Source of the DNA: a virus | Taxonomy: Duplodnaviria > Caudoviricetes | Virus record (IMG/VR): IMGVR_UViG_3300012953_000003 | Location: 1-40,802 of that record | Direction: 5' to 3' (one strand) | DNA length: 40,802 bases | In this document: piece after piece, positions 2,444 to 40,440 of the stretch | Layout of the letters: the number at the start of each line of letters is the position of its first letter | Numbering within the stretch: the first letter of the stretch is position 1 | Translations under genes and position numbers: made by a program | Notes under the pieces: model-generated | The model's database searches: none | Told to the model about the DNA's origin: nothing | Seen by the model: the letters and a program-made list of their open reading frames with translations, nothing else

Positions 2444-3892
2444 GTGTATAGCGGTTACAACATTTACGAGCATAGAAGACAGCCCAATGATGGAGGAATT
2501 GAACAGCCTTGTCAGGCTTATTTAGATCAAGAAATTTATTGGGAAGTCATTGAAGATTTGCTAACAGGTTCGCAGGGCATCAGGGCGAAGCATCGGAAAT
2601 ATTTGCCACAAATGGAGCGCGAGGACGAAAGAAGTTATGACCGCAGATTAAGCCGTTCTGTTTGTCCGCCTTATTACGAACGAATAGAAAAGCTATTGGC
2701 GGGGATGTTAATAAGAAAGCCAATTCGAACAAATGACGTGCCGCCGCGAATAACAGAAGATTTATTTGATATTGACATGCAAAATAACGGGTTGTCAGTG
2801 TGGGCTTATACCTGCGCGAGAACGATATTACGCTATGGACATGCGGGCGTTTTAGTTGAGGCCGACAAGAATGGCGGGCGTCCTTATTGGGTTACATATA
2901 GCCCTCGGGAAATTCTCGGATGGCGATCAGAAATTATTGACGGCGCTCGCAAATTTACACAGTTAAGGCTTTTGGAAAAGGTCGTTGAGCCTGATGGTGA
3001 ATATTCAGAAACTACCGTCGAGCAAGTTCGTCTATTAACTCCGGGTGCTTTTGAAATTCACAGAAGGAACAAACAGGGTGAGTTTACTTTGCACGAAGAA
3101 GGTACAACAAGCCTTTCTGAAATTCCTTTTGCCGTTGCTTATTCCAATAGGGTTAATTTTATGGAGTCGAGGCCGCCCCTCGGTGACGTAGCCCAACTTA
3201 ATATTCTTAGCTATCAAAATGGCTCTGATGTTTCGAACCAGCTCCATATTTCAGCGGTTCCGATGTTGGCGTTTTTTGGATTCCCTCAAAGTGCGGAGGA
3301 AGTAAGCGCTGGCCCGAGTGAAGCGTTAAGTCTTCCAACTGATTCAGATGCGCGATTTATTGAACCAGAAGGAAAGTCTTTTGATGCACAATTTACGCAA
3401 TTAGATCGAATCGAAAAGCAGATTAACGAGCTTGGGATGGCGGCAATTTTGGGAACCAAGTTGAAGAATGTGGGAGAGAGTTCGAAGGCGAAGGAAATCG
3501 ACAGGAGTCAAGGCGACAGCACAATGAAAGTCGTGGCGCAACAGTTACAAGATTTGATTGATAACTGCCTCATGTATCACGCCAAATATTTAAACCTTTC
3601 GCAGTCTGGTAATTGTTTCGTCAATCGGGACTTCCTCGGTTCACGTTTAGACCCTCAAGAAATCAACAGCCTTAAGGAGCTATGGACAAGCGGAGCGATT
3701 ACACAGGAAACCTTGTTGAAGCAATTAGAAGCGGGCGAGGTGTTGGGCGATGATTTTGAAATTGAAGAGGAATTATTAGCTGTTCAGCAAGAAGGATTAT
3801 CAGCAATGGAAGCAGAAGCGCCAATTCTTGAAGCTAACGAAAATGAAGACGAGGAGTCTGCGGAGCCTGAAGATGTAGACCAAGAAGACTAA
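2444..3892 (+). CDS. Portal protein (DUF4055-like)
   Basis: Follows TerL; 482 aa; YLPQ..E....Y..RL, YGHAGVLV and IPF motifs; acidic C-terminal tail. Confidence 0.88.
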   Translation: MYSGYNIYEHRRQPNDGGIEQPCQAYLDQEIYWEVIEDLLTGSQGIRAKHRKYLPQMEREDERSYDRRLSRSVCPPYYERIEKLLAGMLIRKPIRTNDVPPRITEDLFDIDMQNNGLSVWAYTCARTILRYGHAGVLVEADKNGGRPYWVTYSPREILGWRSEIIDGARKFTQLRLLEKVVEPDGEYSETTVEQVRLLTPGAFEIHRRNKQGEFTLHEEGTTSLSEIPFAVAYSNRVNFMESRPPLGDVAQLNILSYQNGSDVSNQLHISAVPMLAFFGFPQSAEEVSAGPSEALSLPTDSDARFIEPEGKSFDAQFTQLDRIEKQINELGMAAILGTKLKNVGESSKAKEIDRSQGDSTMKVVAQQLQDLIDNCLMYHAKYLNLSQSGNCFVNRDFLGSRLDPQEINSLKELWTSGAITQETLLKQLEAGEVLGDDFEIEEELLAVQQEGLSAMEAEAPILEANENEDEESAEPEDVDQED

Positions 3893-3896
3893 GTAA

Positions 3897-6092
3897 ATGG
3901 CTCCTAAAATAAAATCTATTTTTGGAACTGTTGACCGTGGAAAAGTCGGGGCCGAGGTTCCTTATTCTGATCTAATTCCAGAAACTTACTTTCGTAATTC
4001 GCTCGACTTAAATCGGTTTGAAAATAAAGTTTCAAAAGAATTGATCCAGTCTTACAACCAAATCATTCTTGATTCGGTTCGAAAGCTTGAAGCAATAGAA
4101 AGACTGCCAAAAGCAAGCCAGCCCAAATATACGGCGGCTCGTTTACGTTCGTTATTAGCTCAGACAAAAAAGAGTCTTGAAGGTTGGTCGAATAGTAGTT
4201 CAAAGGAATTAATAAAAAATCTTGATGGAATTGCAAAGCTTCAATCTGAATTTGTAGAAGAACAATTAAAAAAAGTTTTACCTGCGGGGATGCGTTCGTC
4301 GGTTCGTTCTGTTGAAGTGTCCCCAAAGTTTGCCGAGGCCGTTGTTAAAAATAAAGCAACTGATATAAATGCAAATGTTTTAAGCGATGATTTACAGGCG
4401 GCCGTTAAAGGTGTTGACGGGTTAAGACAAGCTCAAGGAAGTTTTAATTTAACTGCAAAAATGGGGTCGAAATTAACCCTGCCAAATGGCGATATTGTCA
4501 GCAAAGCTTTTAGGGGATTAGCAGAAAAAAACGCTGATTTATTTGGGCGTACTATTCGCGACGGTTTACTTTCAGGAGAAACAACTCAACAGGTCGGGCG
4601 GCGTCTTCTTGGAAAGTTGTATTTTGGGGAAAAAGCAAGAACAGCGAAACAGCTCGCGTTGGCAGGAGGGGAAGCCACTCGAATGGCTAATCACCAAATT
4701 TCGACGCTTGTGCGTACTTCAATTCAACAAGTCAGCGACACAGCCGCGCAATCTGTTTACAAACAAAACAGCGACATCACACAAAGTTATAAATATTTGG
4801 CAACGCTAGATAGTAGGACCGCCCCTCAATGCATGGCCCTTGATCAAAAAGTTTTTAAATATGGTCAGGGACCGACACCGCCTCAACATTTTAATTGCAG
4901 ATGTCGAACCGTTGCGACTATTGATTACGAAGGCTTAGGCATACCGCCGCCAAACTTTACGAGAAGCACAAGAGCCGCTGTTGGTGGGCCTGTTCCAACT
5001 GGAACTTCTTACGGGTCTTGGTTACAAAAACAACCGCCTCAGATGCGGGCGAAAATATTAGGAGGGAAACAGGTCACGCTTTCAAGTGGCAAAAAAGTGT
5101 GGCGGGGTAAGTTTCAATACTTCGATAAGTTGGCAAAAAAAGATGGACCAGATAAAGCCATTGCAAAATTTGTAAGTTCTGACGGAAGTGAAAAGAGCCT
5201 GAAACAATTACAAAAGTCTTATGGTAAGCCGTCAAATATTAAAAAGAAACCGACAATCGTGAAAGAAAGGAAGAGCGCGGAATATTCATGGCAGCGATAC
5301 AGCGATGGTTCGTTGGAGAAAGGAGCCGAGCCAACAAACGCAACAGTCTGGACAAAAGACCGTCAAAAATTACATGACAAGATTGTGGATGATATTTTGA
5401 AAGAAAATAATCCAAAGCCTCAAAAAAATCCTGATTTCTTTATGACTGGCGGAGGGTCGGCTTCTGGTAAGTCGATCATGCTTAAGAAGTCACCCTTGCC
5501 AAAAGGAACGGTAGTTATTGATTCGGATGAAATAAAGAAACGACTGCCTGAATTTGTAGAAATGCAAAAGAAAGGAGGGAAAGCGGCTAAGGCTGCGGCT
5601 GGTTATGTTCATGAAGAATCTTCATACTTGTCTAAACGATTAATGAGAGAATCGGCTCAACGTCGTTATCACACAATGCTCGACGGAACGGGGGACAATA
5701 GTCTTAAGAGCTTAGAAGGCAAAATCAAACAAATGTCTGAAAGGGGCATGAAGGTCAAGGCTAAATATGCGACGGCAGATATTGAAACAGCGCTCGAAAG
5801 AAATTATCAAAGGTTCTTAAAGACTAAACGTCTTGTCCCTGCGACTTATGTTCGTGATGTCCATAGGAATGTTTCAAAAGTTGTTCCTGATGCACTTCAG
5901 GCGGGAATTTTTGACGACTTTGAATTGTATGACATGAATAAAACAGGTCAAGCCATCAAGGTCGCAACGTTCACAAAAGAGAAAGGCTTAAATATACAAG
6001 ACCAAAATTTATGGAATAGATTTATAGGAAAAGCGTGGCAGCCTGACAGTCAATTTAACAAATGGACAGATATGGTTTTAGATGAAAGTTAA
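3897..6092 (+). CDS. MuF/SPP1 gp7-like head morphogenesis protein with C-terminal zeta-toxin-like P-loop kinase
   Basis: MuF motif ATLDSRT..C..LD...PPQHFNCRC. C-terminal FMTGGGSASGKS, VIDSDEIK, HEESS and MLDGTG motifs match zeta/PezT-type kinases. Confidence 0.88.
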   Translation: MAPKIKSIFGTVDRGKVGAEVPYSDLIPETYFRNSLDLNRFENKVSKELIQSYNQIILDSVRKLEAIERLPKASQPKYTAARLRSLLAQTKKSLEGWSNSSSKELIKNLDGIAKLQSEFVEEQLKKVLPAGMRSSVRSVEVSPKFAEAVVKNKATDINANVLSDDLQAAVKGVDGLRQAQGSFNLTAKMGSKLTLPNGDIVSKAFRGLAEKNADLFGRTIRDGLLSGETTQQVGRRLLGKLYFGEKARTAKQLALAGGEATRMANHQISTLVRTSIQQVSDTAAQSVYKQNSDITQSYKYLATLDSRTAPQCMALDQKVFKYGQGPTPPQHFNCRCRTVATIDYEGLGIPPPNFTRSTRAAVGGPVPTGTSYGSWLQKQPPQMRAKILGGKQVTLSSGKKVWRGKFQYFDKLAKKDGPDKAIAKFVSSDGSEKSLKQLQKSYGKPSNIKKKPTIVKERKSAEYSWQRYSDGSLEKGAEPTNATVWTKDRQKLHDKIVDDILKENNPKPQKNPDFFMTGGGSASGKSIMLKKSPLPKGTVVIDSDEIKKRLPEFVEMQKKGGKAAKAAAGYVHEESSYLSKRLMRESAQRRYHTMLDGTGDNSLKSLEGKIKQMSERGMKVKAKYATADIETALERNYQRFLKTKRLVPATYVRDVHRNVSKVVPDALQAGIFDDFELYDMNKTGQAIKVATFTKEKGLNIQDQNLWNRFIGKAWQPDSQFNKWTDMVLDES

Positions 6093-6286
6093 AGGCTAGG
6101 AAATTCTGGGGTGTAGTCCACTGTGAAACCGTTCATCTTTTTTTTCTTTGCAATCTTTTCGGCGTTAGCAATATCTTGTTTAACACCAGCTCTGAATTTC
6201 GCGGCATCTGCGGATTCTTTACCCTTCGGCTCTATACCGAGGGCAACTTCATCTATTATTTTTTGCATACGTTCGGAGCCAAGCAT
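6089..6286 (-). CDS. Small convergent protein, candidate immunity/antitoxin
   Basis: 65 aa; AAGGTG SD; own promoter; its stop overlaps the MuF stop in TTAA. Function is inferred. Confidence 0.65.
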   Translation of the reverse strand: MLGSERMQKIIDEVALGIEPKGKESADAAKFRAGVKQDIANAEKIAKKKKMNGFTVDYTPEFPSL

Positions 6287-6311
6287 TTAAGCACCTTTTG
6301 AAATTATTGTT

Positions 6312-6340
6312 AGAATAACATTGTATACTAAGCAAATCAA
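6312..6340 (-). promoter_or_regulatory. Promoter of the 65-aa gene
   Basis: TTGATT-N17-TATTCT with TGn extension; the spacer contains GTATAC. Confidence 0.6.
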
Positions 6341-6358
6341 TAAGGAGGACCGTCTAAA

Positions 6359-6415
6359 ATGGCGAAGAAAAAGAAAAAAGGCAGCAAGGGTGTAAAGAAG
6401 AAGGGCTATTGTTAG
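6359..6415 (+). CDS. 18-aa Lys-rich peptide
   Basis: TAAGGAGG SD, then MAKKKKKGSKGVKKKGYC*. Confidence 0.55.
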   Translation: MAKKKKKGSKGVKKKGYC

Positions 6416-6442
6416 TATATAAATGCAACCCTGCGGGTTTTC

Positions 6443-7186
6443 ATGTCAGACGAACAAAATCGCGAAGCTGCGCCGAGCGATTCAAATCAAACAAATGTCG
6501 AAGATTTACAAGCTTTAGTTAAAAAGCTTGAAAGTCGTATTGATGCAACCGACATCAAGAACAAAGAACTCCTAGAAGAAAAAAGGAAGTTTAAAAAGGT
6601 CGAAGAAACTCTTTCGGGTTTGCCTGAAGGAACCGACATTAATGAATTATTAACCTTTAAGCAGCAAAGCGAGCAGGCGGAGCTGGAGCGTAAAGGGAAA
6701 TACAGCGAAGCCTTAACGGCAAGGGAGGAACAATTCAGGGAAAGGGAGGCAAAGCAAAAAGAAGCAATTCAAGAGCTTGAATCTAAAGTTAAAAATCTTG
6801 AGTTAATCAATCCAGCCGTTCAAGCTTTATCTGAAGTCGTTCGAGATCCTGATCTTGTTTTGAATAATTTCTTACCTAAAGAAAAGATCGAAATGAAAGA
6901 TGGCGTTCCTGTTGTTATTGATGGATACGACAGGCCACCCGTTACCGAGTGGATCAAAAATAAACTCGTCGAAGATAAGCGCGATTATTTATTAAAAGAT
7001 CCTTCACCTCAAGGAAGCGGAGCGCCAGCAAGTCGAAGTTCTGCTTCTGGCAATACTGCGGGTATTGATTCCGACCTAATGAAAAGGCTTGCTAATGGCG
7101 AGCATGATGTAGAACATGATATTTACAAAAGATATGGTCGTGACGCTTGGTTAAAGGCTAAGGAAATAATTTCTGCAAACAAATAA
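6443..7186 (+). CDS. Capsid scaffolding protein
   Basis: Coiled-coil, E/K-rich, with a GSGA linker near the C-terminus; directly upstream of the capsid gene. Confidence 0.82.
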   Translation: MSDEQNREAAPSDSNQTNVEDLQALVKKLESRIDATDIKNKELLEEKRKFKKVEETLSGLPEGTDINELLTFKQQSEQAELERKGKYSEALTAREEQFREREAKQKEAIQELESKVKNLELINPAVQALSEVVRDPDLVLNNFLPKEKIEMKDGVPVVIDGYDRPPVTEWIKNKLVEDKRDYLLKDPSPQGSGAPASRSSASGNTAGIDSDLMKRLANGEHDVEHDIYKRYGRDAWLKAKEIISANK

Positions 7187-32064: not shown

Positions 32065-32541
32065 CTACAAAGCCCTTAAATGTTGTTGGACGTTTTTTAA
32101 TTTTTTAATGTAGATATAAGCGCCCGGATGTTCGCCTCGTTTGCAATATCTTTTTTCATTGGAATTTTTTGCAACAAGTGAGTCATCTTGTAAAACTGTT
32201 CCGCCCGCTTTTTGGCTTAGTCCGTCATATGTGCTTCGCTCCAATTTTTCGAGGTCGCCATTTCTAACGCTTGTTACATATTTAGGCGCAGATGGTTTTA
32301 AGCGGTGCGCGTTCTTGCCTGTTCCGTAATGGCTCTTAGGCCGAGGAAAAATAAAAACAATCGTAATGTCAACAGCGTCTTCGATAATTGGTCCATGATA
32401 AAACTTTAAAGCGGCTTCTCTGACGTCTTGACGCCACGGCTTAACGCGTTTACTGCTTTCAACCATTACGCCATTGCCGACGTGCCGTTTGCTTCCTTGA
32501 GGCGCAGGGATGCCAACGACGGGAATATAAATTAAAGCCAT
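32065..32541 (-). CDS. rusA: RusA-like Holliday junction resolvase
   Basis: PAPQGSK, DLEKL.R...DGL and DDS.V motifs. Confidence 0.9.
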   Translation of the reverse strand: MALIYIPVVGIPAPQGSKRHVGNGVMVESSKRVKPWRQDVREAALKFYHGPIIEDAVDITIVFIFPRPKSHYGTGKNAHRLKPSAPKYVTSVRNGDLEKLERSTYDGLSQKAGGTVLQDDSLVAKNSNEKRYCKRGEHPGAYIYIKKLKNVQQHLRAL

Positions 32542-33242
32542 TACACAAAAAGCAAACCTTGAGAAACTGGTTTGTAATCAGCGTTATATCGTTTGTTATC
32601 TCCTTTTGGATAGTTGCAAATTTCATAAGCTAAATTGGCAAGCATTTCTTTTTTTTGTTTTTTTGTGCCTATTAAATAAAAATATCTGTGCTTTCTAGGG
32701 CGTTCTTTTAAATATAATTTATCTCCATATTTTTCTTTTAGTAAAGTGTGTTTGTCTATGTTTTTATTTTTGTCATAACGTCCAACACTATCTTCAATGG
32801 AGCTGTGGTGCATGTGTTCCAGACCTTCAACAGCGTAATCTGTAAACTTGTTGCTTAAACCTGTATAAATCCAATTAGTTGCTTGATAAATATAACCATG
32901 ATGATTTTGTGAAGTGTCAGCATAGCTAACAAGAACAGAAGGTTTTGGTAGTTGTTTAAAGCATTGGGCAACAAAAAAAGATAATGAATTTTTTTGTAAT
33001 TTTTCGTTAACGACTAATCTATTTAATTCAAAAAAACAATCTTGGTATAAACCTTTAAAAGCTCCTTTTATTAAAGTATGGCTCATGGGTTTACCAAAAC
33101 TACAAACACCTTCTAAAGAGTTATTTTCATACAAGCCAAAAGCATAAGAAACTGACGGTAATCTTTTTGCATAGTGTTTATGTAAAAACCACTCTTTGCA
33201 TTGTTCGTTTTTAATTTTTGTAATTGTATATTTATTGTTCAT
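32541..33242 (-). CDS. mom: Mom-like DNA modification protein (GNAT fold)
   Basis: HY, ELNRL, VSYAD..Q.H.GYIYQATNW.YTG, KHRY and YPK motifs. Confidence 0.85.
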   Translation of the reverse strand: MNNKYTITKIKNEQCKEWFLHKHYAKRLPSVSYAFGLYENNSLEGVCSFGKPMSHTLIKGAFKGLYQDCFFELNRLVVNEKLQKNSLSFFVAQCFKQLPKPSVLVSYADTSQNHHGYIYQATNWIYTGLSNKFTDYAVEGLEHMHHSSIEDSVGRYDKNKNIDKHTLLKEKYGDKLYLKERPRKHRYFYLIGTKKQKKEMLANLAYEICNYPKGDNKRYNADYKPVSQGLLFV

Positions 33243-36600: not shown

Positions 36601-36639
36601 TGACTCTTTTAGTATACATATTATTTTACAGGGTGTCAA
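36601..36639 (-). promoter_or_regulatory. Early promoter
   Basis: TTGACA-N17-TATACT-AAAAGAGTCA. Confidence 0.9.
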
Positions 36640-36896: not shown

Positions 36897-36936
36897 TGAC
36901 TTCCTTAGTATACACATAGGAGAATAAACTTGTCAA
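36897..36936 (-). promoter_or_regulatory. Early promoter
   Basis: TTGACA-N18-TATACT-AAGGAAGTCA. Confidence 0.85.
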
Positions 36937-38693: not shown

Positions 38694-38732
38694 TGACTTC
38701 TTTAGTATACAAACAAGAAAGGAAGTTGTCAA
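38694..38732 (-). promoter_or_regulatory. Early promoter
   Basis: TTGACA-N17-TATACT-AAAGAAGTCA. Confidence 0.9.
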
Positions 38733-39140: not shown

Positions 39141-39179
39141 TGACTTCTTTAGTATACATATAAACTTAAGAGCTGTCAA
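39141..39179 (-). promoter_or_regulatory. Early promoter
   Basis: TTGACA-N17-TATACT-AAAGAAGTCA. Confidence 0.9.
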
Positions 39180-39690: not shown

Positions 39691-39729
39691 TGACTTCTTT
39701 AGTATACATATAACTTTAAAAGGTGTCAA
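39691..39729 (-). promoter_or_regulatory. Early promoter
   Basis: TTGACA-N17-TATACT-AAAGAAGTCA. Confidence 0.9.
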
Positions 39730-40412: not shown

Positions 40413-40440
40413 AGTATACATTAAGAAGACCCCCTGTCAA
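40413..40440 (-). promoter_or_regulatory. Early promoter
   Basis: TTGACA-N16-TATACT. Confidence 0.8.

Follow-up and report, generated by a model that had tools for sequence, protein, structure and literature searches.

The locus and its genes

The window, i.e. the whole stretch of DNA analysed here, is a complete virus record of 40,802 bases with direct terminal repeats at its ends. Its head module is arranged in the order terminase, portal, MuF, scaffold and capsid. The gene of interest (3897..6092, plus strand) has the portal gene (2444..3892, plus strand) to its left and the head scaffolding gene (6443..7186, plus strand) to its right. It encodes a protein of 731 amino acids, in which a MuF (gp7-like) minor head protein carries a kinase as C-terminal tip. 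The Phage_Mu_F domain (aa 220-338, 4554..4910; Pfam E 7e-14) is followed by a lysine-rich linker (aa 445-461, 5229..5279) and by a P-loop kinase domain of the zeta/AvrRxo1 fold (aa 481-731, 5337..6089), all on the plus strand. Within the latter, Pfam recognizes a Zeta_toxin domain (aa 501-682, E 6e-20), and both Pfam matches exceed the curated cut-off. The kinase contains an RxxLH motif (aa 489-493), Walker A GGGSASGKS (aa 518-526, 5448-5474), IDSDEIK (5517-5537) with the catalytic aspartate D544, HEESS (aa 572-576, 5610-5624) with K580 downstream, LDGT (5679) with DGTGD at aa 596-600, and the arginines R635, R639 and R645. The catalytic motifs of the kinase are intact, and the order of MuF domain, lysine-rich linker and zeta-type kinase given in an initial annotation of this DNA was recovered with reading frame, Pfam domains and motifs all in place.

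An AlphaFold2 model of residues 475-731 (pLDDT 93) was ranked by Foldseek closest to zeta (E 6e-13), followed by PezT (3e-11) and AvrRxo1 (3e-10). Weaker matches were obtained with ng_zeta1 and polynucleotide kinases (approximately 1e-5); a polynucleotide kinase as closest fold was rejected, since its E-value of 2e-5 ranks below zeta and AvrRxo1. Sequence profiles gave the same preference (zeta 2e-16 versus AvrRxo1 2e-7). A hand count of 120 long homologues revealed fusions to MuF in 29 (one of them the protein of the window itself), to a portal family in 18 and to a prohead protease in 6; NUDIX (11), 2H (4) and ART domains (4) are co-fused as well, and many of the remaining members carry no head-protein label.

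Tail-to-tail with the kinase lies a small gene for a protein of 65 amino acids (6089..6286, minus strand), the cognate partner and predicted inhibitor of the kinase, which consists of two helices and an extended tail. Both reading frames overlap by TTAA (6089-6092). Compared to the related locus L001, 20 codons differ synonymously and 7 non-synonymously, and third positions hold 24 of the 32 differences; this bias supports coding and with it the earlier assumption that the gene with the shared TTAA stops is real. Searches of Pfam, PHROGs, NCBIfam and PADLOC gave no family match for the 65-aa protein. The gene lies on the strand that also bears Erf, RusA and exonuclease genes (27 ORFs scanned), in line with its proposed position on the early strand, and the ribosome binding site described for it was also seen as a Shine-Dalgarno-like AAGGTG (6292..6297, minus strand) 5 nt ahead of the ATG.

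The promoter proposed for this gene fared less well. The weak sigma-70-like motif TTGATT-N17-TATTCT with TG is present (6312..6340, minus strand), but it lies below the threshold of the promoter scan, is matched by 7.4% of 500 shuffles and is indistinguishable from background. Scored with a matrix derived from five strong TTGACA/TATACT sites on the minus strand of the phage, it reaches 4.5 bits (rank 258 of 81,540), whereas such strong sites reach 16-23 bits. At least seven such strong sites exist, and seven near-identical TTGACA-N16/18-TATACT promoters are located on the minus strand at 601-629, 36611-36639, 36907-36936, 38704-38732, 39151-39179, 39701-39729 and 40413-40440. Several other lineages have promoter-like pairs 22-28 nt upstream of the partner start, and in 11 kinase-partner regions no promoter stood clearly above its own shuffles (P 0.03-0.53). 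A TATACT hexamer identical to the -10 element of the strong sites was also observed at 6414-6443 (minus strand; 6.2 bits, weak), just beyond the exchangeable segment described below, in a block common to the other alleles; it could drive any antisense partner.

The nearest major capsid proteins are those of the cyanosiphoviruses KBS-S-2A (68%), S-H1 (60%) and MED4-184/P-HS2 (57%), and because of this capsid similarity (57-68%) the host is presumably a marine picocyanobacterium. Profiles for tyrosine integrases and serine recombinases (PF00589, PF07508) had no match in the complete record; in the controls they matched 14/14 and 2/14 genomes. The record also encodes a Mom-like DNA modification protein (32541-33242, minus strand; PHROG 1384). 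Between partner and scaffold, a lysine-rich ORF of 18 amino acids (6359..6415, plus strand) is preceded by a perfect AGGAGG (6343-6348), and its 3' end is kept in the alternative alleles L054-L063. Relatives have several small basic genes ahead of the scaffold, possibly for DNA-condensing core proteins.

Linkage and predicted complex of kinase and partner

The initial annotation had asked for the co-occurrence of both genes in related phages and had named persistence of the small gene beside a short MuF as evidence against a cognate pair. Where the interval from MuF to scaffold is covered, the partner is present in 18/18 loci with the kinase and in 0/70 loci without it, so that no such persistence was seen, although these counts are not independent, since some loci are the same contig twice, near-identical or related. 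Among 54 incomplete loci, it was found in 11/34 with and 0/20 without the kinase. This tally comprises 142 loci (L001-L051, L054-L150 and the window) and omits L052, L053 and any locus that lacks both MuF and kinase. The reverse search, starting from the partner, gave 42 loci: the kinase is encoded in 33, the sequence of 8 stops short of the MuF region, and a single one (L256) lacks the kinase.

An iterated partner profile matched 8 of the 10 loci L173-L182, the other two being truncated, and 15 of the 16 distant viral loci L183-L198. In 17 genome loci from several phyla it found the partner in 7 at E<1e-7 and weakly in 3. No partner was found with this profile in L190, L053 and the remaining 7 of the 17 genome loci. 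The best kinase-free locus had an E-value of 0.76; as the profile was iterated on the same loci, these E-values are partly given by construction. Partner and kinase also occur as one chain in L200, P0177, P0269 and, with the partner in front, P0122, and some of these cases could be read-through errors. In L188:3292-6099 and in L194-L196, a long ORF directly after the kinase-bearing ORF opens with a partner domain.

Co-folding, another of the checks proposed in the beginning, gave a score of 0.85 for kinase and partner and 0.00 for the best of three controls, with a contact agreement of at least 94% between runs and a partner pLDDT of at least 85. The mark applied is reached by 116/157 solved complexes and by 2/215 mismatched pairs. 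The predicted interface on the kinase comprises D544, H572, S576, K580, 595-602 and 644-651; aligned to zeta, these residues would form the acceptor cleft and the lid. On the partner side, residues 31-42 and 51-65 are predicted to lie opposite the last two of these kinase segments. The model thus predicts binding of the partner and occlusion of the acceptor site, and we regard it as very probable that the 65-aa protein is the cognate binding inhibitor of the kinase. On the basis of the co-fold, the partner may also neutralize a putative toxicity of the kinase.

The same pair exists in the cultured cyanophage P-SS2 (L052:4846-9965). Its ORF030 (1499 aa) combines MuF with a kinase domain of 48% identity and with two additional tips. 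The partner homolog is ORF033, co-oriented on the plus strand, and ORF032 resembles ART partners (E 8e-6). ORF031-033 look like one partner per tip, of which ORF032 and ORF033 are assigned. For purified P-SS2 particles, Table 2 of PMC2784084 gives average peptide numbers of 96.5 for ORF030, 1.5 for ORF031, 1 for ORF032 and 2.5 for ORF033, the peptides of ORF030 being given for the protein as a whole and not by protein part. Among the rows of this table that were compared, enzymes have 0-0.5 peptides. The paper labels ORF030, which is a MuF protein with three tips, as major capsid protein and the small ORFs as unknown structural proteins; our reading suggests an identity for these three. With the reservation that the counts are low for the small proteins and come from another phage, the data suggest that kinase and partner are co-packaged in P-SS2. 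Delivery of the kinase with the virion appears likely to us, and since the virion proteome of a cultured phage already holds both proteins, delivery, substrate and immunity between phages can be tested there.

One might regard the small gene as a chance neighbor or shadow ORF, given that it has no family match and only a weak promoter. Synonymous bias, strict linkage, fusions, co-fold and the peptides of the P-SS2 homolog have already largely refuted this, and we consider it extremely improbable.

Cassette exchange and gene orientation

Ten contigs (L054-L063) encode a MuF N-terminus that is 95-97% identical to that of the window but lack the kinase; L064 is a truncated eleventh. Nine of the ten are full length. 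A peptidase-like tip with HExxH is encoded in L054 and L055 together with an antisense gene of 98 amino acids, and a related tip in L058, here with a small gene in sense orientation; L059 and L062 have another HExxH tip and a sense gene of 64 amino acids. In L057, L060, L061 and L063, an ART-like tip is combined with an antisense gene of 54-61 amino acids. The tips were named according to motifs and their resemblance to ORF030 of P-SS2. Every full-length alternative tip is accompanied by its own small gene. On the DNA level, the flanks of the ten contigs are 90-96% identical to the window, and nothing matches between 5244 and 6352: identity stops at 5228..5243, the left boundary of the swappable cassette, and resumes at 6353..6367, its right boundary. 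In L001-L003 the pattern is reversed: the cassette is 82-83% identical throughout, but of the flanks only short pieces match, at 67-81%. Kinase and partner thus move as one swappable cassette, and the locus offers several alleles within one near-identical phage background.

Sequencing run X3 contains one contig that covers 5277-6423 together with loose ends at 5243 and 6384-6386 that continue with other sequence, and therefore several cassette alleles probably coexist in one sample. In L256:1-2591, a MuF with an ART-like tip and its own 54-aa gene is found next to an 87-nt remnant of a kinase 3' end (86% identical to L030, E 2e-23); an orphan gene for the kinase partner is present as well and is cut off by the contig end. 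Displacement scars of this kind are known from polymorphic toxin loci. The one in L256 may be the trace of a recent swap and not a sign of selection.

The arrangement of the two genes is much less uniform than their linkage. Of 24 hand-picked kinase-partner pairs, 9 are antisense and 15 co-oriented, and both orientations occur within each of two separate tree clades. In 28 of 33 close loci with kinase and partner, the genes are 1.0-3.0 kb apart with plus-strand genes between them, and in L030 a two-way terminator between kinase and partner abuts the latter. The initial annotation had considered antisense cross-regulation as part of the design. These observations speak against this: the antisense layout is not conserved and is not how the kinase-partner family works, although the overlapping genes of the window may still permit antisense cross-talk. 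Since 6 of the 9 full-length alternative alleles also have antisense partners, separate expression of the partner may nevertheless be favored. The further claim that the antidote is made both separately and early was weakened by the weak promoter and by P-SS2, where the partner gene has the same orientation as the kinase and its product occurs in the particle.

The variable layout also bears on the idea of a toxin-antitoxin pair whose action is confined to the cell that makes it, in which antisense RNA sets a late switch from partner to kinase and delivery is irrelevant. The convergent genes of the window without a strong terminator between them would fit, as would the six antisense alternative alleles and the change of orientation within two clades. 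However, the 15 co-oriented pairs, the long spacers, the two-way terminator of L030 and the fusion of the kinase to MuF, portal or prohead protease in many homologs speak against it, and we judge it improbable.

As an additional observation, L009, L012, L017, L024 and L030 contain a variable island of plus-strand genes of 1-3 kb between kinase and partner. In L030 this island has two perfect TTGACA-17-TATAAT promoters and resembles a moron-like hot spot within the head module.

Substrate, possible function and relation to known systems

The initial annotation had described the kinase as a zeta/PezT-like UDP-GlcNAc kinase. The fold match to PezT and zeta stands; the substrate is another matter. 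According to PMC3062530, zeta contacts UDP-GlcNAc via D67, T118, R120, E100 and T128, for which sequence alignments place D544, T598, D600, K580 and a residue other than threonine at the equivalent positions of the kinase. Accordingly, two of the five contacts (D67, T118) are kept and three (R120, E100, T128) are lost. Among 258 kinase domains, HEESS is present in 248 and lysine at the position of zeta E100 in 228; a DGT-type motif was matched 238 times, in 230 cases as DGTGD/N and never with the arginine of zeta R120. RxxLH and HxESS are common to the kinase clade and AvrRxo1, which according to PMC5087710 and PMC5491322 lacks the UDP-GlcNAc motif and makes 3'-NADP. XopAJ/AvrRxo1 (NF041405) is also the best NCBIfam match of the kinase, with 31.4 bits versus a cut-off of 300. 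Because three of the five UDP-GlcNAc contacts are lost and the AvrRxo1 motifs are kept, UNAG-3P is a doubtful product as judged from the residues. The pocket of the kinase clade points away from the textbook zeta substrate. We give NAD or an adenine-type compound an even chance of being the substrate; another compound is possible, if less likely, and a UDP-sugar seems rather unlikely.

It is conceivable that the kinase phosphorylates UDP-GlcNAc as a classical zeta toxin does, thereby weakening the cell wall so that DNA can enter or the cell lyses, and that the small protein restrains it. Zeta and PezT are its best matches in sequence and fold, the equivalents of D67 and T118 are kept, and a cell-wall role was proposed in a passage of Iyer et al. 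2017 (PMC5512222). On the other hand, aspartate or asparagine stands in place of R120 and lysine in place of E100, and T128 is lost; zeta has neither the invariant HEESS nor RxxLH, the sister alleles are peptidases and ARTs, and the co-fused domains act on nucleotides. We therefore consider this possibility unlikely.

The explanation that we find probable overall is a MuF-fused kinase effector that forms one cassette with a cognate plugging partner, is injected, and has an NAD or adenine-type substrate as the likelier target. The zeta-fold kinase, fused to the MuF head protein, would be packed in the head, and the partner, predicted to plug the acceptor cleft, would keep it silent during synthesis and packaging. 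Ejection would then free the kinase in the next host, where it may act by phosphorylation on a nucleotide cofactor of the host; NAD or a similar adenine nucleotide is a likelier substrate than UDP-GlcNAc. A co-packaged inhibitor would require a release step. Fresh partner from its own transcription unit might shut the kinase off afterwards and also protect against effectors of the same allele. Co-occurrence, cassette exchange, fusions, co-fold and the P-SS2 proteome all agree with the initial proposal of a kinase effector that is part of a head protein and has a small cognate partner.

Alternatively, the kinase might be a non-toxic anti-defense enzyme that phosphorylates a host immune signal or an RNA end, with the partner as chaperone, packaging adaptor or timer. 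Fusions to NUDIX, 2H and ART domains, the weaker fold matches to polynucleotide kinases and the partner homolog in P-SS2 particles are compatible with such a role. According to the co-fold, however, the partner would occupy the catalytic cleft, and a separate small gene for every full-length alternative tip as well as the orphan partner in L256 are what toxin-immunity loci look like, so that we see little chance for this alternative. A more far-reaching idea extends the MuF-fused effector and its plugging partner to competition between phages: marine cyanophages without integrase might fight inside co-infected cells with a packed allele-specific effector and inhibitor, with immunity to the own allele and NAD poisoning by the allele of the window. 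The MuF slot would then be a kin-discrimination locus under balancing selection, in which orphan immunity genes are kept after swaps. We regard this as speculative and rather improbable. The physiological role of MuF toxins in general is still open according to PMC12226406, and the present locus adds a small family of predicted inhibitors without database match to this question.

The closest known systems are the MuF polymorphic toxins (Jamet et al. 2017, PMC5576092; Apk2/IapK, PMC12226406). As in these, the MuF gene lies directly 3' of the portal gene, the C-terminal toxin-type enzyme domain varies between relatives, and a small tip-specific gene (<150 aa) follows the toxin, in the window in antisense. 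IapK occludes the acceptor-nucleotide site (PMC12226406), and the same is predicted for the 65-aa partner. In contrast, the tip is a kinase here and the antisense partner belongs to no known family. Moreover, these toxins are described as tied to temperate phages, whereas the window is a complete genome without detected integrase or serine recombinase. P-SS2 gp030 is listed in a table by Jamet et al. via its ART domain, and the word zeta was not found in the passages of the main text or in the six searchable supplements of PMC5576092. A fusion of a zeta-toxin-like kinase to MuF is mentioned in one passage on polyvalent proteins by Iyer et al. (PMC5512222); this passage describes the same domain architecture, assumes phosphorylation of a cell-wall sugar and names no partner. 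P-SS2 ORF030-033 (PMC2784084) share the MuF-kinase and the partner homolog ORF033, and all four proteins are found in virions, but P-SS2 differs by the 1499-aa protein with two further tips, three small genes and a co-oriented partner.

With epsilon/zeta and PezAT (1GVN, 3Q8X, 2P5T) the kinase shares the fold (Foldseek E 6e-13, TM 0.68), the Walker A lysine, the catalytic aspartate and T118, and differs by the three lost UDP-GlcNAc contacts. Epsilon obstructs the ATP site while the acceptor site stays accessible (PMC3062530), whereas the 65-aa partner is predicted in the acceptor cleft; neither profile nor fold comparison matched it to an antitoxin of the epsilon/PezA type. With the NAD 3'-kinase AvrRxo1 and its partner Arc1 (4Z8Q; PMC5087710, PMC5491322, PMC4938570), the locus shares the fold (E 3e-10), the RxxLH helix, HxESS, the loss of the UDP-GlcNAc motif and a small partner downstream of the toxin. 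Sequence identity to AvrRxo1 is only about 20%, far under the family cut-off, DGTGD is not among the common motifs, and the double-tyrosine motif of Arc1, as given in PMC4938570, is absent from the 65-aa sequence. AvrRxo1 is delivered by type III secretion, whereas the window kinase would be delivered by the phage head. Membership in either family was rejected, with two of five zeta contacts and no epsilon/PezA on the one side and 31.4 versus 300 bits for NF041405 on the other. The cassette is thus a real effector-partner pair of the MuF polymorphic toxin kind that resembles the zeta and AvrRxo1 toxin-antitoxin pairs and stands outside both families.

The MuF-zeta architecture as such is known from the passage in PMC5512222. 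What is new is the family of inhibitors, a substrate that is likely a different one, the swapping of alleles in a phage where no integrase is detectable, and the hint of co-packaging. Neither the partner family nor an exchange of alleles between cyanophages was found described in the literature covered, which comprised sources other than subscription papers and included PMC9503650, PMC10532202, 10.1101/521658 and 10.1101/2025.01.14.632903.

Some homologs deserve a separate remark. More than one kinase copy is present in 17 of 240 proteins, and in L173:1907-7111, L174, L175 and P0160 MuF is fused to two or three kinase copies in tandem; one partner gene was seen in the loci L173-L175. Frameshifts in the MuF or kinase genes of L036, L050, L206 and L212 may reflect assembly error or decay. 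The stand-alone homologs L208 and L210 from Bacillota have HDESS and DGTMK motifs and a different small downstream ORF, and possibly represent another subfamily.
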